Positions 5,475 to 61,501 are shown, numbered from the whole stretch's first letter. The stretch is 61,988 nt of DNA, filler included, from Nemertoderma westbladi (GCA_032718475.1; 4 parts of 4 records of this genome joined end to end with filler, not necessarily neighbours in it), one strand, 5' to 3'. Made by a program: numbers and translations. The notes: generated by a model not told the origin, from the letters alone.

Positions 5475-7741
5475 CTAAGGGCAATTCTTCCAGCAGGCAA
5501 CTCTCCCACTGCCCCCTATAGGTCCTCTTAATCTTTGTCCCACTCTTCTTCCCAATTCCAACTCTTTTGGAATTGAGCTTCCCTTCTCCTTCACCCTTAA
5601 GTCGGTTCTTTCCGTCATGTCACTGATCATCTTCTCATGGTCGTCCCCTGGCGGTAAAGTGCCACCCTTCATCTTGTCGTCATTCGGCGGTAGAATGCTG
5701 CCCCTCATGTCATCCTTAATGGTACATTCCACCTCTGCTGGCCTCCCCCTCAATACGTGCACTGGCGTTAACGCCCCTGATGACCTCCAGTCATCCTTCG
5801 GTACACGTAATGGCTTACCATTTAATGCCACTTCACACTCTGCCAGCCCCTTATGCGTGTACAACACACCCTCTCCCACTTTCCTGCCTCCTTTGTCACG
5901 TTTCATCATGGGCTTCTCTGCCCCTGGTCTAATCTTCCCACATCCTCTCCCTTTCCACCTTGTCTTCTTACTCGACCTCCTCCCCACCGGTATGCCTCTC
6001 AACTGGACCAGCATCTGTTCCAGACACCTCTCCGGACTTTTCGCCGTCCACTCTTCTCTATCCCCATACCGATACTCCCCATTCTCCTCCGCCCACTCTC
6101 TTGTTGTTGTTTTTCTTCCTGACTCATCTGTTGGGGGTATTTTTCTGACCTCAACCCTTTTACCACACTCCACCATGTGTGGTTCAAGATCCATAGCCAT
6201 CCCGGACTCCTGGTTTTCTTCCCCGGCCTGCTTCTCGTATGGGTCCTCCCCATCGCCCGTCTCTGGTTTCTCCTCTGTCCCTCCGTCCTCTATTTTTCTC
6301 ATTGTGCCTGTGAACATGTACCCTGAGAATTCTGACACGCTGAACGGAATTCTAGACTTGATTGGGCCGCTGAGTGTCCATCCAAATGGCGTGCAAATCG
6401 CCATCGCGCCTCTCCCCCCATCATCTCCAAGTCGGCAGGAAAGTCTCCTGTGTGCCGTCGGGCAGTCCATGCCGACTATGAGAGATACTTTCGGGACGTC
6501 CAGTTTGGGCACGGAGAAATCGATGTTGTCCAGGTACTGGTATTCTTCGACCTCGATCTTCGTGGGTCGCCTGGCATTAATATTAATCGATTCTATTATT
6601 TGAATGGGATAGATGGTCGCCCCATAATCGCACCCTGGCGTTATCGCTGATATTTTACAATGCCCCGTTCTCATCTTCAAGACCTCATCTTTACTCAAGA
6701 TAGTGGTTACCACCATCTTGCTTGGCCTCGTTCGTAACCTTATCTTTTCGGCCACCCAACCCTCCGTTAGTGTGAACGCTGCTCCACTATTGATCAACAT
6801 TAATGTTGTGACCGATAGCCCGTCCTCTCCTGTTATTCTCACTGGTACTATTTCGAGTAGTACCGTTCTCTTTCTCTTTGCTCCCGTCGTGCTCGTACCC
6901 ATAGTTTGGCCTCCAGTCTCATCAGTCTCGTCGTATTCTATCGATGTTTCCCTACACTCTCCGAATCTGTGTCCTTCTACCACGCATCAATGACATAGTC
7001 CATTTATATCCGCGTAGGCTACTCGATCTTGTTTAGGCAACGCTTGCCAATGCTTACAATTCATGGTGTTGTGGGTTCCATCTCTATGCAACTGACATTT
7101 GTATCCTGGATTGTAGTGTTCCTTGTATAGCCCTTCACATATCATGCGTAGGTTTATATATACCAGTTTAATGTTTTGTTTATTCGCACTCGGCCTACTG
7201 GGGGTGTTGGGATTATATTTGTTTGTGTTGTTGTTTTGTTTCTGTCCCTGCCACGGTGTGGCCCTACTTTCAGCTGCCTGTGGACTACAAGTCCCCTGCG
7301 TGGCCGCATGTGGTAGCGACTGTCTCACTCTAGGGAATGCATCTGCCGGATTATGTTTGGGTTTAGGCCTGTTGTATTCAGCTTTCGGTGCCCTCTCCAA
7401 ACTATCCTCACTGTAGACTGGGTCTGTAATCAACTCCGCCTCATAGTTAAGGAAGTTCAACATCTCCTCTAAGCCCAGCTCCGCACCCTTCTTCTCCCAG
7501 GTGGAGAAGGCGATCTTTCTAAACTTGTTTCTTAGCCAGATCGGTAGTGCCTGCGCTATTGTGGTGATGTTATTCGATGCGTTGAGTTCATAAGGCGCAT
7601 CTAATGTCTTTAGCACAATCAGCGCCTTTTCGACTTTATTTGCAAAAGTCTTTATACTGACAGGGTTATCCTGTAGTCCACCTGATGTTATTCCCCTTAA
7701 GGTTTGTCGGATGATCTTAGCAGGATGTCCGAATTCCCTGT
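5475..7741 (-). pseudogene. Outer BEL gag C-terminus + aspartic protease (DSG>NSG) + integrase remnant; RT/RNase H absent
   Basis: LP.WLRNKF, CQLH..H....C knuckle, LLEIVPV..LINSGA, CTPFGWTLSGP, ECEVALNGKPL..LTPVHVLRG; in-frame stop at 6987. Confidence 0.85.
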
Positions 7742-8651
7742 TGTTGCCGTTATTCCCGACACCAGGGGGGAAAACGCCGATGCTGGAGGCGGAATTTTCA
7801 GACCACTTTATTCCGGCCAGTCACCGGTTATTGGGAGTGGAGAAGGATGTTATCTGAGATGCAGAATTGCGGTTAGAGAAAAGTTTCATTGGTTGGATAT
7901 AATCTTTAATGTAACTTGAACTCTGATTGAGAATAATTTGGGCTTCCCCACACCAATATACCAAATATTCACAATAATACACAATATGAAATTCCTACAG
8001 TAAATTATTTAATTACCCACTGTTCGCTTAACCTAACTGACCTAACTAATATTCCCAAATTTCCCTTGGTCCTAGTCCCGGTACAGTAGTGTCAGTCCTT
8101 TTCAGGCTCGTAATTACGTTAGTAGTCGAGAACCCACTCCGAATAGTCGGTAGGCCAGTAAATTCCGGTCCTCTGTCTTTCGACCCTGTTGCATGTCCGT
8201 CCCACCCTTCCCAACCCCTAACGGGATCAGTCATCAGGAAAGTGGTACAGCTTAGCTAGGGGTCTGTCGGTCTGAGCGCATCGAGCAACGCCCAAGTCCT
8301 TTTCAGGCTCAGTCACCACTGATGGCCAGGGACCGCTAAGGGCAGTCCTTGTCCCCAGACCTAGCGGGTTACCAACTACCGAAGTAGAAGGAGGTTGTCT
8401 AGGCCTCTAGTAATTATCAGGCAACCTTGACAGTAATGCTTGATTTTACCTCCCACGCATGGCCCTTAAATATCTGAAATGGTTCCCGCGCCCCGTAAGT
8501 CGCCCCAAGTTTCACCCATAAATCGCCCCCAGTCTATCAAATGTGCCCAAATTTTGTGTTCCCACACCCACCACTGATATTGGCACATTCATAAAATATA
8601 AATCCAAAAAATATGTAACTTGCGTTATGCTATCGTAAAATACCGGGAACA
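7742..8651 (-). repeat. 3' LTR of inner BEL element (910 bp)
   Basis: Matches 18174-19045 on both flanks; TG...CA ends; sense AATAAA at 7807-7812. Confidence 0.93.
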
Positions 8652-8954
8652 GTCCCACCAAATGACCTTCATGAGGTCTATCGATAGATCGAGTTTGCGT
8701 AAGGTCATTTCCCCATATAAAAACCCAATTTTTATTATTGCATAGTCTATGATTAATTTGTCCTAGAGTTAGTTTACATACATATAAAAATAAATGTTCG
8801 AATAAGTGTCTATAAATGTGTTGGTCTTTCATCTCCTGCTTTGATATGCTTTCCTTTTCTTTGCCCGTCGACTTTCATCTATCGCCAATGCGGGTAGAGG
8901 GGCATCATTGGCCGACATGAGAAGTGCCGCTGCCTGCCTCCTGGCAGCCCTTTC

Positions 8955-9760
8955 TCAGGGAGGTATCGAGATGGGATCTGTTCTCCTTTCCAGCTCAGTG
9001 GTTTGAGCCACCTGGAACCATTCTCCATCTCCAAACGCTTCCATATACAAATATAGACGTCTAATCACTTCGAAGGGACTGAATAGATTGGCGCTAAGCA
9101 ATAAATCCACATAGTGGAAAGGCAAGGCCTTTACTGTATGAAGGCGTTCGGGGAATGAGAAATATCCACACGCCATCTCCTGTGCAATGTTTCGAGCGCT
9201 CAATTGCGCTCTGGTCTTTACATGAACAATGGCGTACATTTCAAACATTACCATGTTCCCGGTAGCCGTAACATCCTTGGTAGGAGATTCAATGTTGCAC
9301 TGAGGGCTCGCAGTATGCCCACAGAAACCGCACGTTGTACAGAAGTTGTAAAGTGTCGGGCAAACTGCTACTTCGTGGCCCAGGGTGGCGCAATACAGAC
9401 AATATATTATCCCAAGGATTTGGAAACACGGTTCGGTTACTCGTTGTTTCTTACCGCGAGGACACTGCTCCGAACCACAACTACTGCAAACATTGAGTTG
9501 CCTTTCCCGACCGAAAAAATCGGGATCTGGACGCCAGCGTAATATTCCAATCAACTATCCTTCTTGGGGATAATCGTTGTCATAGGAAGCCCGCGGAACG
9601 CCGCGCTGTCATGGAGTTGGGCCTCGCTGCGGTATCCCTCCTTATGGTACGCTGGACGCATTTCAGGTGCTCGTTTCTGATGGTGAATCCACTCCGTCTG
9701 TTCCGCGTACCATTGGATGAGTCTCATCGGGTCCTGTGGAACGGTGGGAGCCGGTCGCAA
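8955..9760 (-). pseudogene. Cargo ORF, C-terminal part: Cys/His-rich, tandem CCHC-like Zn knuckles
   Basis: CSSCGSEQC...CLYCATLGHEVAVC...CTTCGFCGHTASPQC; overlapping ORFs 9551-9760 and 8955-9554 are probably frameshifted pieces. Confidence 0.6.
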
Positions 9761-11276
9761 TAGTCGGTTGGCGAAGGGGTGCCAGAATATTCGCCGAAGG
9801 AATCCCGAGGAGGTCTCCGGGGGTTGGTGTTATACTAGGGCCCTTCGTAACTTGGATTGCCGATCGGGTCCGCTGAGTACTGGTACTTGGAGTTTCCATG
9901 GACCAATCCTCTCCTCCAGGAAACGGGTAAGGAGATAACCTCCTGCATGTATGATCAAAGTCACTGAGCGCGAGTGTGGTAACTAGTTCTCTCGCCGGAC
10001 TACCGGAGCCAAGCGGAGTAGTTACACCCGAGTCCATCGCAGGCTCAGTCACGGCAATTCGCTTAGCGGCTGATCCATAGGTAACTTCCAGTTCGTGTTG
10101 ACTTTTTGGTGTGGATAACAGAACACCTTTGTGTTTCCATAGCTCCTCTCCTTCCGACGACACTATAGGTTCCTCGGCGCTGAGGAGGTCGTTGATTGTT
10201 GGGATATCGGACGGTCCATTCAGATCCCAGGCCTTGATTATTTCAAGCGTCTTGGTATCTCCTGGTGGGATATTCTGTACCACCTTGAACGCGTGGTCGA
10301 TCACCTCGTTCCATTCGTTGTCTATGAAAGCATTGGGGACCGCGCTAATAAGCTTATCGAGGGTTTTACAGATAAACTTGGCAACCGTGTACGACTCCAT
10401 CATTATGTAGATGTAGTTTCGTCGCTCCGGATTATCCCAGCATTGGTGGATCATCCACTTCCTCTCTACATCCTTCCAACGGTTCTCCCGCTCATGATGT
10501 ATTGCTAAACCCGGATGTGCGCTGTAGATTTTATTGCAGTCCGGGAACTTCTGTGGTTTAAAATCTAAACCGCCGTTTAGCACCGCTAGGTAGCCGATAC
10601 CTGATTTGGTCCGTCTCACCTCTCTTTTGATAACATCAAAGTCAAACAGGATCTGTTGGATCACCGATGGTAGTAACCAGATCACTCTGGCTGTCCGTAT
10701 TTCCTGTTGTGGTGTTGGAAATATTCGACACACCAGTACCAATCCGTCTAGGGTTCTGAGGACGATGATTAGCGACTGACCTTCCTCTTTTGTCCCGTAT
10801 TTTTCTTTATAGTCGTCTCAGTTTTGGATGACCGTCATACGGTCCTCTCGCAGCGTCACCGTACATTCCACCAGATTTCCCCAGTGTGTGAGACATGTAC
10901 TCTTATCGTCGATGAAACTCTGACATTGCGCCATTGTAACCGCCTTCGGAGTTGGCGTCGCTTTGCCTTCGTTGTCGTATATTAAGCACCGGGATTTGTA
11001 AACGCTTTGCCAGAACATATCCCAGAATGACAACTCTCCTGCTCCGGTTGCCTCAGCGTTCCGAGTCCTTTTCAGGCTCGTACTAGCATCGGACAACCGG
11101 AGCGCCTGCAGGTTACGGGTATCTGGGGCCTCCTTCCCGGAGAAACGAATGACTCGCACATTCTTGCTCAACAGGGCGTTCCATTTCACATCAAAGCTAG
11201 GAGATCCAGGCTGTGGATAGTCAAATAAATTAATTGTTGTACGTAATTCGCCAAGAATCTGGCGATTCGGGTCCAT
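9663..11276 (-). pseudogene. Cargo ORF of unknown function (~537 codons, one in-frame TGA at 10818-10820)
   Basis: ORFs 10818-11276 and 9663-10742 share a frame; the gap reads IQN*DDYKEKYGTKEEGQSLIIVLRTLDGLVLVC. No signal peptide or TM segment evident. Confidence 0.7.
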
Positions 11277-11830
11277 ATTGTAAATTACGTCCGTTACAAA
11301 TTAATTCAGTTAATTATAAATCCAGAAAGTCTGATTCTATAGCGACTGCAGAATAGTTATTTTTAATGTAGTTAATATTATTGATATATAGGCATCTATC
11401 ATCTTATTGGTACTAAATTCAGTATTTACAGTTACTATAGCTATACATTATTATCCAACCAGTTTTTTGACTTTTTATGTCCGCTTCTTTTTTAAATTCT
11501 TTTTTCATTCTACAATTTATACCTTTTTTTTCTTTTTTATTTCTATAGTTTTTTCATTTCACATTTCATTATTTCTTTCACATTGCATCATTTATTCCAC
11601 ATTTCATCATTTATTCCACATTTCATCATTTATTTCACCATTTCATTGGGGTTATAGCCCCCCGGCAATCATCATTGGGTTATAAGCGCAAAACACCAGG
11701 AATGCGCATCATCACATTTTCATTATCATAATAGTACGCATCATCATTCAGTTTATAGTTGAATTATCTGTTTCTTTTCATCATTTCGTACTACATTCAA
11801 CCATCTTCTTGGGAAATTTTCGTTGTGGAA

Positions 11831-12189
11831 GGGTGTTACGCAACAGTCTGTGATCTACAGCTGGACTCATTACACCGCCTATGCCCCAAACTGCACACGT
11901 AACGGACGATGAATATAACGCTGGAAGTGAAGTCACATGGAATGCACCAGGGACCCACCAGAATAACACTCCCAGAAACATGAAGCTCAGCCGACGAAGT
12001 CACGTGGAATGCACCAGGGACCCACCAGAATAACGTGGCTGAGGAACATAAAGTCTTTATCGACAAAGTCATGTGGAATGCATCATGGACCCACCAGAAT
12101 AACGCGACAGAGGGGGTGTTACGCGGCAGTCTGGGATCTACAGCTGGACTCATTACACCGCCTACGCCCCAAACTGCACACGTAACGGA
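11831..12189. repeat. Internal repeats of inner BEL: two ~75-bp direct repeats flanking three ~68-bp diverged tandem units
   Basis: cagtctg.gatctacagctggactc... at 11845 and 12127; aagtca..tggaatgca.ca.ggacccaccagaataac at 11929, 11996, 12065. Confidence 0.85.
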
Positions 12190-12544
12190 AAACACAGGAC
12201 AAACATAATGGACACAATGAATTAAACTTCGAAACTTTCCCCTTTCCGATAATCCAAGGTAGTTGGTCCTGATGACCAAAATCAGGGTGAACAAAACAAA
12301 AACTACCCTGCGTCAGTCGAAACATCTGCAGGGTGACGCTGGGCTCTACATAACACACAAGGAAACACAAATACCATGCATGGTTACAGTTGGTTTAAGG
12401 GGGGTCCATAATGATTGTCGGTAAGTCACATTTAAAGAGTTTGTCAACAGGAAGGGAAGGGTTAAACGGGTTTGTTATTGTCACCAATGTCCGCAGCAGG
12501 CTCCGGAGTAGGGAACTTATTACCTCCCTTTGGAGTCACCGCTG

Positions 12545-13940
12545 TCATTGCCTTCGAGAAGGCAAAGCCTCTTGATAGGGCGTTGGTAGTGGCCCTTTGC
12601 CGTTCATATCGTCACCGTTCACCGTTCTTGCAAGTCCATCTTTGCTGGGGGTTATTTCCACGACACGCGCCACAGGCCAGTGGACGCAGTCTTTAAGGTC
12701 TTCCTTGACGAGAACCATGTCCCCAACTGCGACATTCGGGTACATATCATTCCATTTCCTCCTCATTCGAAGGGTTATAAGGTACTCCTGGGCCCAAATT
12801 CTCCACCAATGCGCCGCCAGCGCTTGGGCTTTCTTCCAGTTTGAGTGTTTCACGATGTCATTGGGATCCGGGAACATGGCCTCCGGAAGTATGTTGGTCT
12901 TAGGTCTACCAAGGAGATGGTTGGGTGTGAGGGGCTCCAGATCGGTTGGTTCGTCATGGATGGGAACAATTGGCCGGTTGTTTAAGGTAGCCGTGATTTC
13001 GCAGAATGTGGTGTGCAATGTATCATGAGTGACCCTAGTATCCCCTAACACGATCCGCATGGATCGTTTTACTAAATCAATGAGTTTCTCCCAAACCCCG
13101 TTTGTATGGGGTGCTAAGGGTGTCTGGAAGTGCCATTGGATGTGGTGTTCCTTCCAGATGTGTGATGCGGTTTCGTCTTCGATAGCCTCTCTTAGTTCCC
13201 TTTCTCCTCCCACAAAGTTCGTTCCGTTGTCCAAGTACATGTGCCGGCATGAACCGTTATTCGCTACGAACTGACGCAGGGCGTTGATGAATCGCGTTCA
13301 CTACAAGGTCCAGGTAGATCGCCCTCGACCGTAGGCATATAAAGATGGCTCCCCAACATTTAATGTTGGATCGTCGCTCTATAACTGTAAATGGTCCGAA
13401 GCAGTCTATAGAACTGTAGAACGGCGGCGAGTCAGACTTGACTGCCGGCAGCGTTGCCGGCAGATCGGCCATTCTTTGGGTGAGTGGTGGCCATAGATAT
13501 CTCCTACAAGGGGAACACCGTTTCAATGCTTTCCAAATTAGCGGCTGGATGTGGGTGATCCAGTATCGTTGACAGATATTGGCCATGATCCAGTTTTGGC
13601 CCGCGTGATGGTTTTCCTCATGACATTGTTGAACTAGCAGCTTAGCTAGTGTAGATGTTCCTGGCAGAAGTGCCAGATACTTAATTTCATACTCAACCAG
13701 GGCGTTCGCCATCCGAGTATTAAGGTGGATCAATCCATCCTCTCCCCTCATGGGTCTCAACTGGTAGACCAGCCTATCAGGTTTCAAAATCCTGCCTGCA
13801 TTGAGCTGCTCCCATTCGTTGGGGAATCTTTCTTTCTGAACATATCTTACAATACATTTCTCTGCGATAATGAGTTCTTGTACACTCCGCTGAACTATTG
13901 GTTTGTTATCCTTCCACCGCAGGAAATTACGGAGGGTCAT
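12545..13940 (-). pseudogene. BEL integrase (HHCC zinc finger, DDE core, DUF5641-like tail), frameshifted
   Basis: CHEENHHAG..CSPC, DCFGPF, DNGTNFVG, P.APH.NGVWEKL, LNNRPI, LTPNHLL, W..EYL, GD.VLV..WP.ARV. Confidence 0.92.
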
Positions 13941-14069
13941 AATGTGATGAATGAGTCATTTCATCGAGGAGGTCCGCTCTATGAGGAGTCGTAAGGATGC
14001 GGCTGGTTGTTCGGTGGTCGCAACATTATAGTGCCTGCCCGAGTCCTTTGCAGGCTCAGTCGGGCTACT

Positions 14070-14895
14070 TTAAATCTCCACGGTGGCACTCCCACAGACC
14101 TTGCGGATGCGGATCTCCTTATTGTCCTCCGAGTATTTCCTGCTATCTAATCCAGGATCAAACCGGGTGCTCCAGGACCGTTGCGGTTGCTTTAGGAACT
14201 TCGGGCCTGTAAGCCAGAGTTTACTCCCACCGAGATGTCGTGGGGTGGCGCCTCGGCTCGATAAGTCCGCCGGGTTCCCTTTCCCGTTTACATGATGCCA
14301 GTGTTCTCGATTGGTGCACTGTTTTATCTCCATGGCCCGGTTCGCCACGAACGTTGTGTGTCGTCGTGATGGTGAGTGGAGGTATTATAGCACTATGCTG
14401 GAATCGACCCAGAAATGTTGAGATTCAATGGGGATCCTCAGGTTTCGCATAATCATATGTGATTTTGTCTTACAGCCCAGACTGCGCCTTACAGTTCGAG
14501 CCTTGGGATAGTTGCCAATAAATTCCCCGAATACCATCTTCGCTTTGGAGAACAAGAAACTAATATCACCATTTCCATCTTGGCTTAACCTCCGGATGTA
14601 CGTAACCACCCCAATTCCGGTATTCAAGGCATCCGAGAAGGTATAGAGCTGGGATATGTCGGTGGGCAGCTTATCGAGAAAGAACGGTTGAGGAATCCGC
14701 ATGAGGTGGAGCTGTTCAAGCTGCTCCGTCCACTTTTTCCATTTGGCGCTTAGGTGTGGGGGGAGTTCCTCATCCCATCCCAGACCTTCGATCCACATTT
14801 CTTTAATCAGATTCATTCCGGCTAACATTACCAGAAATATGAAATTCAAAGGGTCGAAGATGGCGCTCTTCACGGATAGACATCCCCTCTTTGTT
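14070..14895 (-). pseudogene. BEL RNase H / Pao peptidase_A17 region, frameshifted
   Basis: TKR..LS..SAIFDPL, WDEELP, FSDA, FWVDS..VL, W.HV.G..NPADLSSRG, LW..GP.FL. Confidence 0.9.
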
Positions 14896-14896
14896 A

Positions 14897-15230
14897 TTAG
14901 TTTGTCATAAGGGGTGCATATTTGGAGGATTGTCGGAATCGCACTCTGAGATCGGTGTGTACCAGGGCGTTTTTAATAGTCAGTTTCACCCTTTCATAAC
15001 CCGCCATGACCCCTTCCACACTGAGTTGCACCTCTCCGTATTCCACTTCCTTGTGGTCCGTAATAGTTTGTATGGGTCGCTTGCAGGGTTCATATTCTAG
15101 GCCCAGCTGTTCCAGAAAGTCCCTGTCGATTATGGTCCCATCTGACCCATTATCCAATAACACAAGTGTGGTCAGGGATTTCCCAACGCCTTGGATTCTC
15201 AGGGTATCACCTTGGCGAAAACCATATACC
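14897..15230 (-). pseudogene. BEL aspartic protease, truncated by the deletion that removed RT
   Basis: LLDNGSDGT catalytic motif; followed directly by the RNase H-proximal sequence. Confidence 0.8.
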
Positions 15231-17890
15231 GCCGATTGATTAGGTTGACCATAGCCGATATACTGGTCACGTGTGCTACGTCAGCAGTAGCCTTGAACTG
15301 GTTCGTTTCTTTTCGCTGGATCATCCGAGAACCCTTTGAGATGTGGTTGGTTTCCCCTTTCCGCTTGGATTCAATACGGAATGTAATGTAGTAAAGTCGA
15401 AGTTTGCAGGAATGTGGAGGAGTGTGTGGTGTCGTAAATCATTACAAACCGCACAACAGGACCTCTGTTCGCAATCCCTTTACCTAGTGGCCTGTGCCAA
15501 GACACCGGAAGCATCGCATTTCATTATCGCTTCAAAGTGATGGACTAGTTCTGCAAACTGGAACTTCCTGCAGAATTCTACCTTGTGCTTTTCTCCGCAG
15601 AAGAGACACAGAAGGGAGGCCGTGGTGCCTTCCCTCTCGGGTGCCCAATTTGCCAGATAGCACGCCAATTCTTCCGCTGATGTCGGTTCCTCGTAATCCT
15701 CATCATCCGAATCCTCGGCCATGGTGATGGCCATCGTACTCACAGGGGGAGGGCGGAATCTCGGTTTTGGAGCGGGTGTCCTGCTCTGAGGAGTGCTCTC
15801 TATCCCATCCATTTTGGAGAGACTCTGTTTAGAGAACATGGAGTCGTTCATGGCCTCTGAGATATTGTCTAGGAATGCCGACATTTCGAGAAAGCTAGGA
15901 TCACAATCTGGGTGTCTTTGCCAGAGATCTACACATTTATATGCCCATTTACTCTGTAGCCATCCGGGAAATTTCCGGGCAATTTGTCGAAGGTTGAGGA
16001 TATTATTCTCCTGTTCTTCCTTGTTTAATGGTTTTAGAGTATAATAAGCATCCTTCATTGAGTCTGAGAACTCTTGAATATTCTGCGGATCTCCTAGAGA
16101 TCCAACATCTTGGATCAGTTTTTCAAGTGTCTTATTAATTATGGTTCCGACGTTGCCATATATTTTATCGAGCATTTTCCACGCATCGTGGTATGCCTCA
16201 TGGGATCCTCCTTCAAAACATCTCACAATACGGCGTGTTTTGCCACCCAGATACTGGGACAAAAATACCAGCTTTTGCGCGTCGGTGATGTCCGTCGATC
16301 CGATTTGAGCAAAAAACCGTTTTTTAAATCCAAGGTAGTCGATGGGGTCACCCTCGAAGGTACATATTTCCATCTTCGGCATAGCCAGATGGTTCTCCAA
16401 GGCTCGTATGATGCCAACGTCGTCTGAATTGGATTGACTAGGAGGTTCGTAATTACTAACACTCTCTCCCATACATGATGGATTGACAAGAGGTGGAGTT
16501 TTAATAACAATGCGGTTACGGATTTTCGGAGTAGACATAAATGGATTAGTGGATCGAGGGGTGGCGTCACGTTCCGAGTCCTTTTCAGGCTCGTACTTGT
16601 GAACGCTCAGTGCCTTAGGATTGGGAGTGAAATAAGCGTAACCAGTGGGGGGTGGAAAACCGGTGCTTGCGCCGAGAGTTTAGACTGCAAGATCGGCGGG
16701 AATTCGGGTTTCGGAGGGTTTACTGCCGGTGGTGTAAACGACTTCTCTAGCTCTGAAACCGGTACTGGTTCATAGTCCTGTTCTATACCCCTCTCCCAGT
16801 CCTCGTACAGTTGAAGGTCTCATTCGATTAGTGCGGCCTCATATTCAGCAAGTTTGGCAATATCTGCGTTCTTTTTGTGAATAAGAAGTCTGTGGGCCTT
16901 AGCATTTTGTTTACGCATTCCGGCCTCCTGTTTACGCATTTTGGCCTGTTGTTTGGCCTCCTGTTTATGCATTTCAGCCTCTTGTTTATGCATTTCGGCC
17001 TGTTGTTTGGCCTTTTGTTTACTCATTTCAGCATCTTGTTTACGCATTTCAGCCTGTTGTTCGGCCTCTTGTTTACGCATTTCAGCCTCTTGTTTACGCA
17101 TTTCGGCCTGTTGTTCGGCCTCTTGTTTACGCCTTTCTTCCGCTAATATATCCTGTTCGATCTGTAATTGAACAAATTCATTTTCCATCCGGGCTTTAAG
17201 GGTCCTTGCTCTCTGTTCCCGTAACTGGTCCCGGAGGGGCTTACCTCCTTGGGAACTACACGCTGAACCAGATACCTCGCTCCTGGCGCTGGAGTGCTGG
17301 TGCCTCGAAGACCCAGTCCTTTTTCTAGGAACCAATGTCCTGGTACCGGAGGTCCGCACTGACTCCACATCCGCCTTTTCAATCCTTTGATAGTATTGTT
17401 CTTCATAGCCTCTCACGAGGCTGAGGGTCCTTTGATGTTGTTTACGGAACTCTTCCAAGTGTGCGGTGTGTTCTTCCAACCTGGGGTAGTTCTCCTCGTT
17501 GGTTGCGGGAATGAGTTCCTGGTACGCTTGCAACATCCGTTCATATCGGTGGAGGATATTCCTGATCTTCTGGAGCTGAGTTTGTATATCGCTGACGGGG
17601 TTCTCGAATCCTCTTAGTTGTTTCTCGATGCGGTTATAGGCCCGAGTAACCCCGCCCTTGAGAGCGCCCAACCGACGTGCCATGTTTTTTACATTCGGGA
17701 CCTCGTCAGTTTCTGAGTCTGTATGAGGCTCTATTCCTTCGGTATCGTAGGCGTTGTCCTCCATTACTCTAGCACTTCGTTTATCGCCAGGTATGCAATG
17801 TCGTAAATAGTTCGTCGTATGTCTCGTATTCTGCCTGAACCACCCGGAAGGTGATTCTAAATCGTCCCACATTGGTTCCCTGTACCTCAA
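15230..17890 (-). pseudogene. Inner BEL gag (coiled-coil repeats, DUF1759-like domain, Zn knuckles), frameshifted
   Basis: KQEAEQQAEMR repeats (16900-17130); MPKMEICTFEGDPIDY..F...F, KL.FL.QYL.G; CLFCGEKHKVEFC. Confidence 0.9.
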
Positions 17891-18173
17891 ATTCGATCTG
17901 CCAGATTCCTGGTTCGACTTGTATTATATCAATGGATGTGATCGATACTTCCATTTCCTGTTAACGACTCTCTTTTAATGACTTGCCAACTACGAGTTCT
18001 AGACTGTTTGGGTTGAGTTTGTGATTTAATTAAACCACGACTTTTTCTCAAATCAAATACCAGAGTTTCCTCATAGTGGGTGCTGGTTAAGCATGGAGAG
18101 AGTTTGAAGAACACTTGGCCTTTTAATTCCCAACTTCCACCAGTTGAAGTTGACCGCGTATTATTCTCAATTT

Positions 18174-19045
18174 TGTTGCCGTTATTCCCGACACCAGGGG
18201 GGAAAACGTCGATGCTGGAGGCAAAATTTTCAGACCACTTTATTCGGGACAGTCACAGGTTATTGGGAGTGGAGAAGGCAGAATTGCGGTTAGAGAAAAG
18301 GTTCATTGGTTGGATATAATCTTTAATGTAACTTGAACTCTGATTGAGAATAATTTGGGCTTCCCCAAACCAATATACCAAATATTCACAACAATACACA
18401 ATATGAAATTCCTACAGTAAATTATTTAATTACCCACTGTTCACTTAAGTGAGCCCCAACTGTCGGAGCTTTCCGAGTCCTTTTCAGGCTCGTACTAATG
18501 CCAGTCGTGGAGCCCACGCCAGGAAGTCAGTCCTCATCGAACCCATCGTTTCCGTCCGGTCAGTCGATCCTTTGCAAGTCCCTAATGCGAAGACTCCGCC
18601 CGAGTCCTTTTCAGACGCAGTCGTAGCCAACGCACCAGGAACCGCTTAGGATCTGTCAGTCCCGTCGCAAATCACCAGTGCAGTCCTTTTCAGGCTCAGT
18701 CGCCACTGATGGCCAGGGACCGCTAAGGGCAGTCCTTGTCCCCAGACCTAGCGGGTTACCAACTACCGAAGTAGAAGGAGGTTGTCTAGGCCTCTAGTAA
18801 CTATCAGGCAACCCTGACAGCCGAGAGTATTGCTTGATTTTACCTCCCATCCATAGCCCTTAAATATCTGAAATGGTTCCCGCGCCCCGTAAGTCGCCCC
18901 AAGTTTTGCCCATAAATCGCCCCCAGTCTATCAAATGTGCCCAAATTTTGTGTTTCCGCACCCACCGCTGATATTGGCACATTCATAAAATATAAATCCA
19001 AAAAATATGTAACTCGCGTTATGCTAACCTAAAATACCGCGAACA
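18174..19045 (-). repeat. 5' LTR of inner BEL element (872 bp)
   Basis: Matches 7742-8651 except the central 18449-18681; TATA-like TATTTAA near 18860; sense AATAAA at 18239-18244. Confidence 0.93.
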
Positions 19046-19050
19046 CCTGT

Positions 19051-22000
19051 CTAGGGCCCGCCATGCAGTCGTGAATCCACTTTCGATACCTTGGTACTGC
19101 CTTACGATGTTGTATGCTGGCCCCCCTGTGTAAACTTGTAAGTATTTTAGGCACTCCGCCTGCGTCAGATTCTTTGTTAATATTTCGTTACTGTACATAC
19201 GTCGGAATTGCAGATATTCCTCTGGTTTGCTACCATCGAATTTGAACGGCTCCACTGGTGGTAACTCAATCCTGGTCTTAAGCGCATCGATGAGTGTTGC
19301 CATTCCCATCGCTTGTACTTCTAGCACGCTCGATGGTTGTTGTTCAGATTCCCCTGCTGTTGGGTGCAGTTCGCCCGTAGGGCCTGTCGACCTTCTCTGC
19401 GTTGGATATATCATTGGGGGTAACGGTCCCATCCATATCTCTGTGTCACATGACTTATTTGGTTCTGAGGGGTTTGGGGTTTTTGTTCTTGGTCGAGTGT
19501 ATAGCTGATATTGCAATGGGGGAATGTCACCCTGCCCCCCCCCCCCCCCCCCCCCAACTGGTGTTATATTTGGTACTGGGGTTGATGTCACCATGTTAGG
19601 GCCCATGCATCTATCGGCAATAACTCCCCCCGCCCCTGGGTATATATTATATCCCTGCATATTCTAGTCATACTGGTGTGCAGATACCAGTCTAGGCCTA
19701 TCCACTTCTTGCCTACCTACCGGTATGTATGCCGTGACTTCCTGGTCTAATCCCATTGTCCGCACTACCCTATCGCCTACACTATCTCTCCCAGCATGGC
19801 CTATAGTATGTGCAGTAAGGCCTGTAGTATGTCCTGCAGTCTGCCTGTGTCCTTCCGGACCGAAGTTTAATGTTCTCGAATATTCCAAGAATTCCTCCCC
19901 ACTACTACCGTACTCTCGATCGGCAGCTATGTTCCGTCGGAAAGTTTCTCTTCGATCCCCTCTCCTGTCCTCATCCTCACACTGGTACATCCTGTACCCT
20001 TCTCCCGGCGTGTGGTATATCTCACCAGGTTATGTCTCTCCGGGGCGACGGCAATCTCCCGGAGTTCGACCCCACCGACTCTCTAACTCCATCTGTACTA
20101 CCGACAGTTTACTGTCCGTCCTTCCTTTCAGGTTGCTCGTAGCAAAGCTTCTTCTATTCTCTTCACTTCGTCTCACTTCAGTGTAGTGATCCTCCTCGTG
20201 AGATCTTGCTTCGACCTCCTGGATAAACTCCACTGTTCTTCTTCCATCTTCCGACTGGGCTTGACATCTTTTCGCTCGCCCGCTCACGGCACCAATGTCT
20301 CTCTCTCTCTGCCCGGTTGGACGGTCCTGGAGATACTCGCAATCCCCCTACTATTCTCTGTCGTTGGGTGCCGCGATTCACCTAACTCGCCACGCGCATT
20401 GTCCGCCGACGCTTGTGGGACATTCTCTGCCCCCCCCCTCTCTAATCTAATCTCTAATCTCTCGTGGTGGGGTGCCCGTAGCCCCCCCCCCCCCCATTCG
20501 TCACCTCCTACCTCGCTTCTATGCCCCTCTCTAGACGATGCACTATCTCTACCCTCGCTGGGTCTATTCATCCCCTCTTCTCCCTGTGCGACTGCATGGC
20601 CTTGCAGGCTCCCATTGGGTTGACTCACCCCCGCTACTCTCTGTGCAACTGCGTGGCCTTGCAGGCTCCCATTGGGTTGACTCACCCCCGCAACTCTCTG
20701 TGCAACTGCGTGGCCTTGCAGGCTCTCATTGGCTGGACCACCTGTCTCCCCAACGTTCGTATTAATTGCACCATTATTGATAATATTATTTTGATTAATC
20801 TCCTCGGGGTTATTATTTAATGTAATATTGTTACCTAAATTATTATTTTAATTATTTAAATTATTTTGCTCAAAATTAGGGTTGTTATTTGGATTATTTT
20901 GCACATTTAAATTAGAATTATTATTTGGGTTATTTTGCACATTTCAATTAGAATTATTATTTGGATTATTTTGCCAATTCAAATTAGAATAATTATTACC
21001 GGGTAAAATATTATTTCCTGCAAGAAAGGTTTCATTAGGGTTGTCTATTACGGTACTAATAATATTAATCCCTTCCAACGTATTATTATTATTACCCCCC
21101 TTGCCTGTTCGGTTACACCAGTCCTGGGTCTGTCGTCCGGTAACTGTAAGTGGGGTATTAACAAAGGTTTCCATTACTTCTGGTTCCTCGTAAATACTAC
21201 CCGAACCAGCCTCACTCTCCAATAACCCCAACTTTGCCAGTTCTAACCGGTGCTTTTGCTTCGCTTGGTATTGCATAAGCCCCCTCAACCGGGTATGCAT
21301 ATCATCCCACATACGGTTTTCGGCCCTCTCTCTCTCTCTGTCTTCCCTCATACTTTGGTTGGCCAATTCTGCCTCCCTTGCCTTCCGCTCTCTATGCTCG
21401 TTCTCCACTTTTGCCTCCCGCTCCTTACGCTCACTCATCTCTCTCTCCTCCCGCTCCCTATAGTTTCTCACCACCCTCTCGGCTCTTTCTTTACACTCTC
21501 TCGCTAACTCTCTCTCCCTCTCCAATAGCGCAGTTCCCTCGTCTAACTGCCTCTCAAACTCCTTTTGATCCAGTGCCACAATGTCTAGTTGACATACCAG
21601 ATCTATCTCTAAAACCCTTCTTGCTTTCGTGGTGGATGTAGCGGACTTATCGGTCGCAATGGACTCCCGCGCCTCTCTGTCCTACTAACTTTCCCCCGTT
21701 TACTGGGGTTTTTGCTAACTGACGACACCGAATCCTTGGGGTTAACCTCGGATTCGCCGTCTTGCAGGTCTGCCCATCCCACTAACTTAATTCCCCTGGA
21801 TTCACTAAGTAAGGCCCTACGTACACTACGTCTGGCTCCATTACCTTGGACCGACACAGTTTAAACAGTTCCGTGGCGACCCCCCTCGCTCTCTCACTCG
21901 CCAGTTTTCCCTGTCCAAAACAGACTAAATAACGGAAATGTCTATTCGACTCACCTAGCCTCTGGTATAGTTTAGGCTGGTCTACCTTTCTCCCCTCCAT

Positions 22001-22409
22001 AGCCTCTTTGAGTAGTTTCTTTGTGGCGTTATTTGCCCGTCGTAGGCGATCACTTGTCCTGACGTCCTCTTCATCGACTCTACCTTCCCTCCTCGTCCAA
22101 TGTCGTACCAGCGGCCCCACCGCCGCTGTTCTGGTGGGTTGTCCGTCGCCCTCGGCCTGTGGCTGGCAGGCGATTTCGGTAACCCGACCGCCGTCGTCGT
22201 CGTGCGTCGACTCGTCTCTCTCTCTCTCTCCCTCGTAGTTGACAGCTGCCCTCCGCTTGGGTTGTCGGATCGTCCCTTGTTGGCTAATCCGGCATGGCAG
22301 GCCGATACCGTCTCGTCGTGGCCTCTCAGATTGTTTGGTTGGTGTCGTCCGGTGTCCGCGGCGGCGTTCTTTCTCCCTCTAACTGTCGGGGTGTTCCTCT
22401 TTCACTCAT
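19051..22409 (-). pseudogene. Outer BEL gag, N-terminal part (fragmented)
   Basis: LPPVEPFKFDG..EEY..F, LKYL..YT.GPA in 19019-19660; coiled coil 20944-21579; three 57-bp tandem repeats ~20565-20733; candidate ATG at 22409. Confidence 0.8.
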
Positions 22410-38313: not shown

Positions 38314-38610
38314 TTAAATATCACAATACTGAGCCTGACGATAAGTGATAATTATTTTTCGGGAAAAACCATCTACAGCCCCATGGATGGGAAACCCATA
38401 AGGCTTCAGTTTGTCGTACCCATCCACATGTAAGCAATGATTCAGACCGTTTGAATAATAAAGACTCCATCGTCTATGTGATTTTCTGAGTCTGTAGAGG
38501 ACTCCTTTGGGGTCTAAGCAATTAAGTACAACTCGCATGGTTTCTTTGGGAATGTTAATACAATGACAACTCTACAATCTTTGTTGCATTGTCTATATCC
38601 ACATTGCATT
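38314..38610 (-). pseudogene. IS3EU-like DDE transposase/integrase core fragment
   Basis: LDP.GV..R....RR..Y.S.G.NH..HVDGYDKLKPYGF.IHG.VDGFSRKI. Confidence 0.75.
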
Positions 38611-59198: not shown

Positions 59199-61352
59199 TT
59201 AGTCAACTTCTTCCATCTTGGAAGCGTCGTCGTCTTCGCCTTCAAGAGGCGGAACGTCTCCGACAGGGACGTCGTCCATAACATCGGCTGCGGATTCATC
59301 GTCGTCGATACCGAGACCGAGCTTTATCATCCGGTAGATTCGAGCCGAGTGAACCTGGGGATCCTCGAGAGAGAACCCCGAACTCAGCAGCGCGGTCTCG
59401 TACAACAACAGAACCAAATCCTTAACGGATTTATCGTTCTTGTCGACGGCGACCTTGGCCCTGAGGGTGTCGATTACGGGATGGTCCGGGTTGATCTCGA
59501 GGTGTTTCTTGGCCGCCATGTAGCCCATAGTGGAGGAGTCGCGAAGGGCCTGGGCCTTCATGATCCTCTCCATGTTGGCGCTCCAGCCGTACTGCGAGGT
59601 CACTATGCAGCACGGGGAGGAAACCAAACGGTTGGAAACAACAACCTTCTCCACTTTCTTATCGAGGATATCCTTAATAACCTTACAGAGACTCTCGAAC
59701 TTCGCTTTATCTTCCTCTTTCTTCTTCTTCTCGGCGTCGTCTTCCGGTAACTCTAGACCTTCCTTAGTGACGCTGACTAACTTCTTACCATCGTAATCCT
59801 TCATCTGCTGAACGACGTACTCGTCGATGGGGTCTATCAGGTAGAGGACCTCGAAGCCGCGCTTCCTGACCCGCTCGACGAACGCGGAGTTGGCCACCTG
59901 CTCTTTGGTCTCCCCGGTAACGAAGTAAATATCCGTCTGGTTCTCCTTCATCCGACCGACGTAATCCTTTAACGACGTCATCTCGTCGCCGGAAGTCGAC
60001 GTGTAGTAGCGGAGTAAGTCGCTAATCTTCTTCCGGTTGGTGGAATCCTCGTGGATTCCGAGCTTGATGTTCTTAGAGAACTGCTCGTAGAACTTCTTAA
60101 ACATATCCTTATCCTCAGCGATCTCGCCCATCAACTCGAGACATTTCTTGACGAGGTTCTTCCGGATAACCTTTAGGATTTTGTTCTGTTGGAGTGTCTC
60201 CCGGCTGATGTTGAGCGGCAGATCCTCCGAGTCTACGACGCCCTTGACGAAGTTGAGGTAATCCGGGATGATCTCCTCGCAGTTGTCCATGATGAAGACG
60301 CGACGGACGTACAACTTAATGTTGTTCTTCGTCTTCCGGTTCTCGAACATATCGAAGGGCGCGCGTTTCGGGATAAAGAGAAGCGATTTGAACTCGAGTT
60401 GGCCTTCAACCGAGAAATGTTTAACGGCTAGATGTTCCTCCCAGTCGTTGGTTAAACTCTTGTAGAACTCTCCGTACTCCTCGGATGTTATGTCGTCCGC
60501 ATTCCTCGTCCAGATCGGTTTCGCTTTATTCAACTCCTCGTCCTCAGTATATTTCTCTTTAATCGTCTTCTTCTTCTTCTTCGCTACCTTCTTCTCTTCC
60601 TCGTCTTCATCGATCTCCTCAACCTTCGGTTTATCCTCATCGGAACCCTCGGCTTCCTCCTTCTTATCTTCTTCCTCCTCTCCTTCGTCGTCGCTTATCT
60701 CGCGATCTCTCTCCTTCTCAACCAGCAGTTTAATCGGATACCCAATAAACTGGCTGTGTTTCTTCACGATGTCTTTAATCTTCTTCTCCTCTAGGTAGTC
60801 GGTTTGGTCCTCCTTCATGTGGAGGACGATCCTCGTACCGCGAGCCAACGAGTCGTCGACAGCCGACCGGACCGTGAAGGAACCCCCCGCCGACGACTCC
60901 CAGATGTAGCCCTCGTCATCGTTGTGCTTCGAATAAACCACGACTTTATCGGCCACCAGATAGGCCGAATAGAAACCGACTCCGAACTGGCCGATCATGG
61001 ATATATCGGCCCCAGCCTGGAGGGCTTCCATGAACGCTTTGGTCCCGGACTTGGCTATGGTTCCCAAGTTATTGACGAGGTCAGCTTTAGTCATCCCGAA
61101 GCCGGTATCCTCTATAGTTAGCGTTTTGGCACTTTTATCAGGAATAAGTCGAATTCTAAGATCTTTTCCAGATTCGAGTTTCGTGGGATCTGTGAGACTT
61201 TCATAGCGAATCTTATCCAGAGCATCGGATGAGTTGGAAATGAGTTCGCGAATAAATATTTCCTTATTCGAGTAGAATGTGTTGATGATTAAACTCAGGA
61301 GCTGCGCAATTTCTGCTTGAAATGCGAAGGTTTCTACTTCCGAATCAGCCAT
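59199..61352 (-). CDS. hsp90: Cytosolic heat shock protein 90, coding region intronless
   Basis: [76 protein letters not shown]-terminal MEEVD. Start at ATG 61352 or 61367, not the TTG at 61442. Confidence 0.98.
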
Positions 61353-61501
61353 AATGTTTTCTTGCATTACCGTTAGTTGTTTAATTGAGTTTTTAATGAA
61401 CTGAAAGCCACAAATACAATGTAAAGTTAAAATTTCTAACAAAACGTAATAAACACACGGTCAATTCGATTTGAAGAATGAATAATACAATTTAGCTACT
61501 C

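Follow-up and report, generated by a model that had tools for sequence, protein, structure and literature searches.

The window analysed here is a stretch of 61,988 bases from Nemertoderma westbladi (GCA_032718475.1), made of four parts joined with filler. It carries a decayed BEL/Pao long terminal repeat (LTR) retrotransposon on the minus strand (7742..19045), nested in the gag gene of another BEL element. Inside this one retrotransposon lie all nine copies of a near-invariant 16-nt motif, of which the LTRs hold five, the other four being in coding regions (gag, pol and a cargo open reading frame (ORF)). The motif, and the RNA hairpin predicted for it, are the subject of this report. Unless stated otherwise, features are on the minus strand.

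A decayed BEL/Pao element and its genes

Pfam matches identify the element as BEL/Pao by its DUF1759 gag, Peptidase_A17 and DUF5641 domains and by the order gag, protease, RNase H region and integrase. Its ends are of the same kind, with LTRs running from TG to CA between two copies of a short target-site duplication, ACAGG (7737-7741 and 19046-19050). The 5' LTR (18174..19045, 872 bp) has a TATA-like word at 18866 and AATAAA at 18244, and the 3' LTR (7742..8651, 910 bp) has the corresponding words at 8472 and 7812. No TGG-starting tRNA-like primer site was seen directly after the 5' LTR (18150-18173), and the purine tract before the 3' LTR (8652-8670) is weak.

Every gene of the element is broken. 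The pieces of gag (15480..17923) comprise a coiled-coil part, DUF1759 and zinc-knuckle remnants; the coiled-coil region holds tandem 7/11-codon repeats of the AEMRKQE type (16880-17140). The pieces of pol (12545..15280) comprise the protease, Peptidase_A17, Integrase_H2C2 and DUF5641. Pfam gave no reverse transcriptase (RVT) match, and only approximately 130 nt separate the protease and Peptidase_A17 matches. The reverse transcriptase was lost by deletion in a decayed copy, and its absence is incidental to the motif. By eye, the host BEL (5475-7736 and 19051-22400) also seems to be without a reverse transcriptase, a protease-like part running into an integrase-end-like stretch. Between pol and the cargo ORF, the stretch 11800-12400 has short internal repeats and a contig depth far above the rest, and is possibly a separate nested repeat.

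The cargo ORF lies between pol and the 3' LTR (8955..11276) and spans approximately 770 codons, broken by stops at 10818-10820 and within 9555-9665; its last piece has two CCHC knuckle-like motifs. Protein searches with its pieces and with gag gave no homologue. Two HMMER matches of cargo pieces were rejected as repeat-inflated FAINT proteins with weak pairwise scores. The ESM Atlas yielded no usable match for the cargo ORF, and a single-sequence fold of its N-terminal part (pLDDT 29.7) gave no usable model.

Nine copies of the motif in two classes

With up to two mismatches allowed, the pattern GAGCCTGNRAAGGACT has 10 matches in the window, namely the nine copies and one plus-strand stretch at 38488, while 100 shuffles gave a mean of 0.15 matches and a maximum of 1. 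The nine copies also served to build a weight matrix and a covariance model, which match them by construction (matrix scores 28.7-38.9, next best 15.8; E ≤ 8e-7); over the whole window neither found a further copy. The stretch at 38488 (E 0.093 in the covariance model) folds otherwise, lacks the motif hairpin and was rejected as a tenth copy. These scans bear out the first-pass annotation in its nine positions, their single orientation and the absence of the motif elsewhere in the window. They do not bear out the degenerate copy that it placed near 18566, which neither the matrix nor the model matched and whose fold is no better than shuffles (z -0.67). A different stretch in the 3' LTR, 8210..8232, is a possible degenerate unit homologous to the copy at 18603; its hairpin is kept with a GUUA loop, but the bulged A is lost, the covariance model gave no match to it and the case for it is weak (fold z -1.66). 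The host BEL is without the motif, and no comparable dispersed 12-mer was found in its pieces or in the long interspersed nuclear element (LINE) of the window.

The letters around the core divide the copies into two classes. In class A (11064, 16577 and 18476), 26 nt are identical, with AGUA before and GAA after the stem; this arrangement was claimed from the start and is present in the sequence, as is the loop E (sarcin-ricin) signature that it spells. In class B (8295, 10031, 14042, 18603 and 18682), GACU precedes the core, and in four of the five copies GGG follows it, giving a lower stem with one A.G mismatch.

In the 5' LTR, unit 1 (18682..18697, class B) has a bottom G.G pair and a long stem below; unit 2 (18603..18618, class B) has two changes and sits on the 61-nt window that folds most stably in the whole element (z -4.45); and the last copy (18476..18491) is class A. 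The 3' LTR holds a class B unit 1 (8295..8310) and a last copy (8094..8109) that has part of the class A signature, in its 5' half only, and no stem below. All four internal copies fall outside Pfam matches. One is in the gag linker upstream of DUF1759 (16577..16592, class A, read EPEKDS) and one in pol, in the linker that joins the Peptidase_A17 part to the integrase part (14042..14057, class B, GCAA loop, read EPAKDS). The cargo ORF has a class A core (11064-11079, read TSLKRT) on top of a 63-nt hairpin (11041..11103, z -6.38) and a class B copy with a GCGA loop and a U.U closing pair (10031..10046, read EPAMDS). EPEKDS, EPAKDS and EPAMDS are in one phase and TSLKRT is in another, and further copies lie in non-coding LTR DNA, confirming that the motif is read in two frames and supporting a constraint on nucleotides. 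Along the predicted RNA, a copy recurs every 1-3 kb.

The pattern also matched exactly, once each, in 22 viral and seven metagenome stretches. We take these matches as chance because blastn found no similarity to the element at E ≤ 1e-3 and three related viral loci look protein-coding. A scan of 14 of the 22 viral loci against Rfam gave no match, a search of viral contigs for relatives of the integrase gave no locus, and the pattern had no match in prokaryote genomes.

The predicted hairpin

In the predicted core fold, a GNRA loop closes a helix of three pairs; then follow a bulged A and three or four further pairs, below which comes either the AGUA/GAA loop or a single A.G mismatch. It is predicted to be fully formed in four of the nine copies (11064, 14042, 16577 and 18476, all six pairs at 0.97 or above) and partly formed in 8094, 8295 and 18682, of which 8094 and 18682 lack the bottom G-C pair. 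The core at 18603, with its two changes, prefers a shifted register, and that at 10031 is mostly unformed (pair probabilities ≤ 0.06). The loop was said to stay GNRA in every variant, for which GCGA at 10031 is weak support, the closing U-A pair there being replaced by U.U. A shifted register, in which the loop has five bases and a C.A pair forms, comes out 4 kcal/mol less stable, yet tolerates the variants at 10031 and 18603 and is kept as a possible alternative to the bulged-A register.

The stems below the core differ from copy to copy. Duplexes between native left and right flanks average -17.9 kcal/mol, compared with -13.6 ± 1.2 for 100,000 permutations (p 0.0004), a test with fewer than nine independent units since 8295 and 18682 share a left flank, and in six of the nine copies the duplex ranks among the lowest 3% when set against 1,493 background positions. 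The first-pass statement that the flanks differ but still pair is upheld overall, native combinations beating swapped ones; the duplexes at 8094, 14042 and 16577 are unremarkable. Of all 61-nt windows along the element, the two with the most stable folds both carry a motif copy. Eight of the nine copies fold better on the sense than on the antisense strand, by up to 24 kcal/mol and mostly through G.U pairs. The flank permutations and the strand preference thus support the proposed sense-strand hairpin with context-specific stems, and the motif is very probably a selected RNA structure.

The strand preference bears on two readings that involve no sense-strand RNA. The motif could be a DNA-level binding site for a transcription or chromatin factor, as an invariant 16-mer with a CCT-N4-AGG near-palindrome clustered in LTRs might suggest, but its single orientation in all nine copies, its long copy-specific stems and its G.U pairs favour sense RNA and make such a site very unlikely. 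Still less probable, and the least so of all the readings weighed here, is the other possibility raised at the outset, that the copies are antisense splice acceptors. On the plus strand, CAG followed by a purine (R) is kept in nine of nine copies after a stretch with a pyrimidine share of 0.59-0.76, and since GNRA becomes UYNC on the opposite strand, the loop variants agree no less with an acceptor than with GNRA. However, an invariant AG stands 10 nt upstream of the CAG in all nine copies, a branch-like word is found in only one, the letters that would be exonic are conserved and the site would be buried in a stem.

An Rfam 15 covariance-model scan of 7000-20000 at E ≤ 5 gave no match apart from a chance one to CRISPR-DR33 (E 3). 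We also considered resemblances to lambda boxB, the U6 internal stem-loop and BTE, to hammerhead, hairpin and pistol ribozymes, and to kink-turns and the 11-nt GNRA receptor, and dropped them because the defining letters or an Rfam match were absent. The histone 3' stem-loop has an unbroken 6-bp stem and a UYUN loop as its consensus. It was considered for the antisense strand and rejected, as the plus strand is bulged in all copies, two copies have UUGC or UCGC loops and there is no Rfam Histone3 match.

LTR middles and the wider family

The TATA-like word precedes the LTR copies by 165-390 nt, and AATAAA follows them. This placement predicts them to be in R, and hence at both ends of the RNA, the position of R being predicted from these two words only. 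Comparison of the LTRs gives 341 identities in 364 positions up to the end of the first motif, 111 in 190 between motifs and 262 in 272 in the last part, and the break falls right after GGACU. The two middles (18445-18681 and 8030-8294) are approximately 58% identical, between ends that are 94-96% identical and with a matching target-site duplication; they are still homologous (score 103.5 versus 67 ± 7). The motif thus bounds a fast-changing, hairpin-rich LTR middle (z -3.16 and -2.63). RNAalifold on the four LTR units gave no useful long-range consensus. Two subfamily middles have come together with shared ends, with strand transfer between two RNAs, conversion and the assembler as candidate causes.

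We compared four of six runs, none of the six recorded as RNA, at an alignment cut of 80% identity (runs X1, X2, X3 and X5 are named below). The four come from three samples, and X1 may be where the window originates. Between 109 and 7,319 contigs per run fall on the element, many of them 80-95% identical, numbers and identities that indicate a large, diverged family. Family contigs cover the cargo ORF in all four runs, which makes it a gene of the family, not an isolated capture. Over 11030-11115, summed contig depth, which is no copy number, rises from 200-500 at the ends (X1) to approximately 160,000 (X1), 75,000 (X2) and 68,000 (X3) on the core. The pile-up lies on 11057-11086 in contigs from the three samples. 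Such a peak makes it plain that the class A motif sits in many flanks, and in the 23 of 45 rows listed most loose ends of contigs could be placed by eye in the family LTR or cargo gene.

One X5 contig fits exactly 11042-11102, the predicted ends of the stem, with six differences in 61 positions (55/61), while 276 and 187 nt beside this island fail the 80% cut. In its two loose ends of 30 nt, 17 and 19 positions agree with the window (36/60, counted by eye; p 1e-4). Loose ends recur at 11102/11103 in all four runs and at 11042 in two. Judged from these contigs, the motif with its stem is a family trait, present in diverged relatives from three samples. A link between the motif and an RNA lacking reverse transcriptase, as drawn in the first-pass annotation, is accordingly not supported; this copy has simply decayed.

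Template switching offers another account of these observations. The hairpins would stall reverse transcriptase, the shared core would let it jump, and the copies would be kept alike by recombination with no reader involved. The break in LTR identity at the motif, with unlike middles between near-identical ends, fits such an anchor, as do the family contigs that join motif flanks from different places. It leaves unexplained the copy-specific stems, the islands that end at both stem ends in several contigs and the sarcin-ricin signature. Moreover, conserved anchors around a fast-changing region would give the same break points without any active role, and an assembly mis-join could also yield unlike LTR middles. 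We give this account a small probability.

Core variants among those listed are rare (at most approximately 2% of depth in X1-X3), and the two commonest of them are C-to-U changes on the sense strand that keep a G.U pair. These variants, and the word GGACU, bear on the idea of an N6-methyladenosine (m6A) platform, in which the motif presents a GGACU consensus with its A bulged out, so that the RNA would gain methyl groups at fixed positions and be read or switched afterwards. GGACU, a DRACH word, is intact in nine of nine copies, including two that are otherwise altered, and its A is the predicted bulge. METTL3/14, however, is described as preferring single-stranded DRACH (PMC10629537), and in intact copies both neighbours of this A are predicted to be paired. 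Outside the motif, GGACU is not enriched in the internal region (seven versus 10.3 expected) or the 3' LTR, and only mildly so in the 5' LTR (four versus 1.2, p 0.026). A family variant changes its C (approximately 1-2% of depth in three runs), and methylation would leave the invariant 5' arm and the AGUA/GAA loop unexplained. An m6A platform therefore seems improbable.

Elsewhere in the window, an HSP90 gene (59199-61460), of animal type by PDB search and without a hit in an exact-match look-up, forms a single uninterrupted frame and adjoins a 22-bp satellite (from 55731).

A candidate docking hairpin and its relation to known systems

The core keeps its letters at all nine places, whether in either of two frames or in non-coding DNA, while the stems are free to vary, a pattern that would fit one reading protein. 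Our leading reading, held tentatively and somewhat short of an even chance, is by analogy that the motif forms a docking hairpin in many copies, recognised by its sequence, whose protein is likely Gag or the cargo zinc-knuckle protein during particle assembly. Each copy would cap an RNA stem whose part is simply to present the invariant core, and one protein would bind many such cores along the element RNA. This reader may be a zinc-knuckle protein encoded by the element, Gag or the cargo protein, as suggested by the absence of the motif from the neighbouring BEL and by the orphan knuckle-bearing ORF. Once bound, it would gather the element RNA into particles. Packaging is placed first because of the analogy with the dispersed packaging signals of RNA viruses and because scattered sites are suspected in Ty1/Ty3. 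As with such signals, the element has several predicted stem-loops that share a common motif on the genomic strand.

A number of observations weigh against this reading, beginning with the hairpin itself. Five of the nine cores are imperfect or weakly formed. Among the nine copies none of the seven core pairs has a compensatory change and the covariation score is below that of shuffles, so that the core fold rests on energy models and the core is kept as sequence. In three of nine copies the flank duplex is unremarkable, and the shared left flank noted above reduces the independence of the permutation test. In the family data, a second X5 contig has no contrast between hairpin and surroundings (64/74 versus 229/281, p 0.39) and three core changes, and since the aligner sets the ends of an island, the nearest loose letters are biased to mismatch. 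As for packaging, only two of the nine copies fall outside the LTRs and the cargo gene. A shorter cargo mRNA with R at both ends would thus have most of the copies, a poor means of selecting full-length RNA. Known dispersed packaging signals, finally, vary around a short motif and do not repeat 16 bases.

The distribution of the copies would also suit a response element present many times over and acting in RNA export, stability or elongation (Rex/RexRE-, CTE- or TAR-like), with the cargo protein or a host factor as its reader, and this comes close behind packaging because the cargo mRNA would carry most copies too. With a copy every 1-3 kb, the motif would be on full-length and cargo RNAs alike. 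The LTR copies are predicted to be in R, where TAR lies, and RexRE, a stem-loop of the LTR, is recognised by a protein that the virus encodes (PMC12789967). The motif and the orphan knuckle-bearing ORF also occur together in this element, while the host BEL lacks the motif. On the other hand, RexRE, TAR and CTE are single regions and not nine dispersed copies, and neither a relative nor an export signal could be recognised for the cargo protein. We regard a response element as possible but doubtful.

Much the same doubt attaches to a more specific proposal, for either packaging or export, in which the motif is a lineage-wide tag in two structural versions, with and without the sarcin-ricin loop, placed in both R regions and in the linkers of three genes and read by the lineage's own orphan zinc-knuckle protein. 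No such tag-and-reader pair is described for invertebrate LTR retrotransposons in the literature searched. How LTR retrotransposons select their own RNA is still poorly defined, and the candidate sites here are explicit, repeated and short, which makes both binding and the identity of the reader testable with small RNAs. If the reader is element-encoded, an invertebrate retrotransposon would have a packaging code spread along its RNA or an accessory system of the Rex kind, and hairpin and protein may together make a new tag pair.

Compared with known systems, the motif may act like a familiar kind of cis element, and we assign it to none. A literature search that lay outside Repbase, Dfam and most subscription papers turned up no report of the motif, nor of any invariant hairpin repeated through coding regions of BEL/Pao elements. 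The AGUA/GAA arrangement is that of the sarcin-ricin motif, a known recognition site (PMC5737476). The likeness to this bulged-G (loop E) motif extends to AGUA facing GAA beside a C-G pair, with a short, GNRA-capped helix above, but the signature is found in only three of nine copies and Rfam gave no match to 5S rRNA or any other rRNA. In eukaryotic 5S rRNA, the loop E-helix IV-loop D arm has a similar layout, with its bulged A on the 5' strand.

[quoted passage not shown] As far as that source describes them, they are single regions with known readers and, unlike the motif, are not repeated through gag, pol and an accessory ORF. The determinants of Ty1/Ty3 are closer in kind, being cis-acting RNA structures of LTR retrotransposons that lie partly in gag, and scattered additional packaging sites are considered likely there but not clearly defined (PMC4974528). 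The Ty1 signals, in contrast, cluster in the first 580 nt as described there, with no repeated motif named (PMC4974528).

In RNA viruses such as MS2, parechovirus and hepatitis B virus, dispersed stem-loops bind the capsid protein (PMC6281560). Those signals, as portrayed there, are short and variable with binding shown, whereas the BEL motif is near-invariant over 16 nt (26 in three copies), belongs to an LTR retrotransposon and is a predicted binding site. The MS2 signal also combines a tetraloop with a bulged A, the bulge in the BEL motif being on the 3' side. The resemblance otherwise lies in the overall plan, in which several stem-loops with one recognition motif are set along a genomic RNA, coding regions included.

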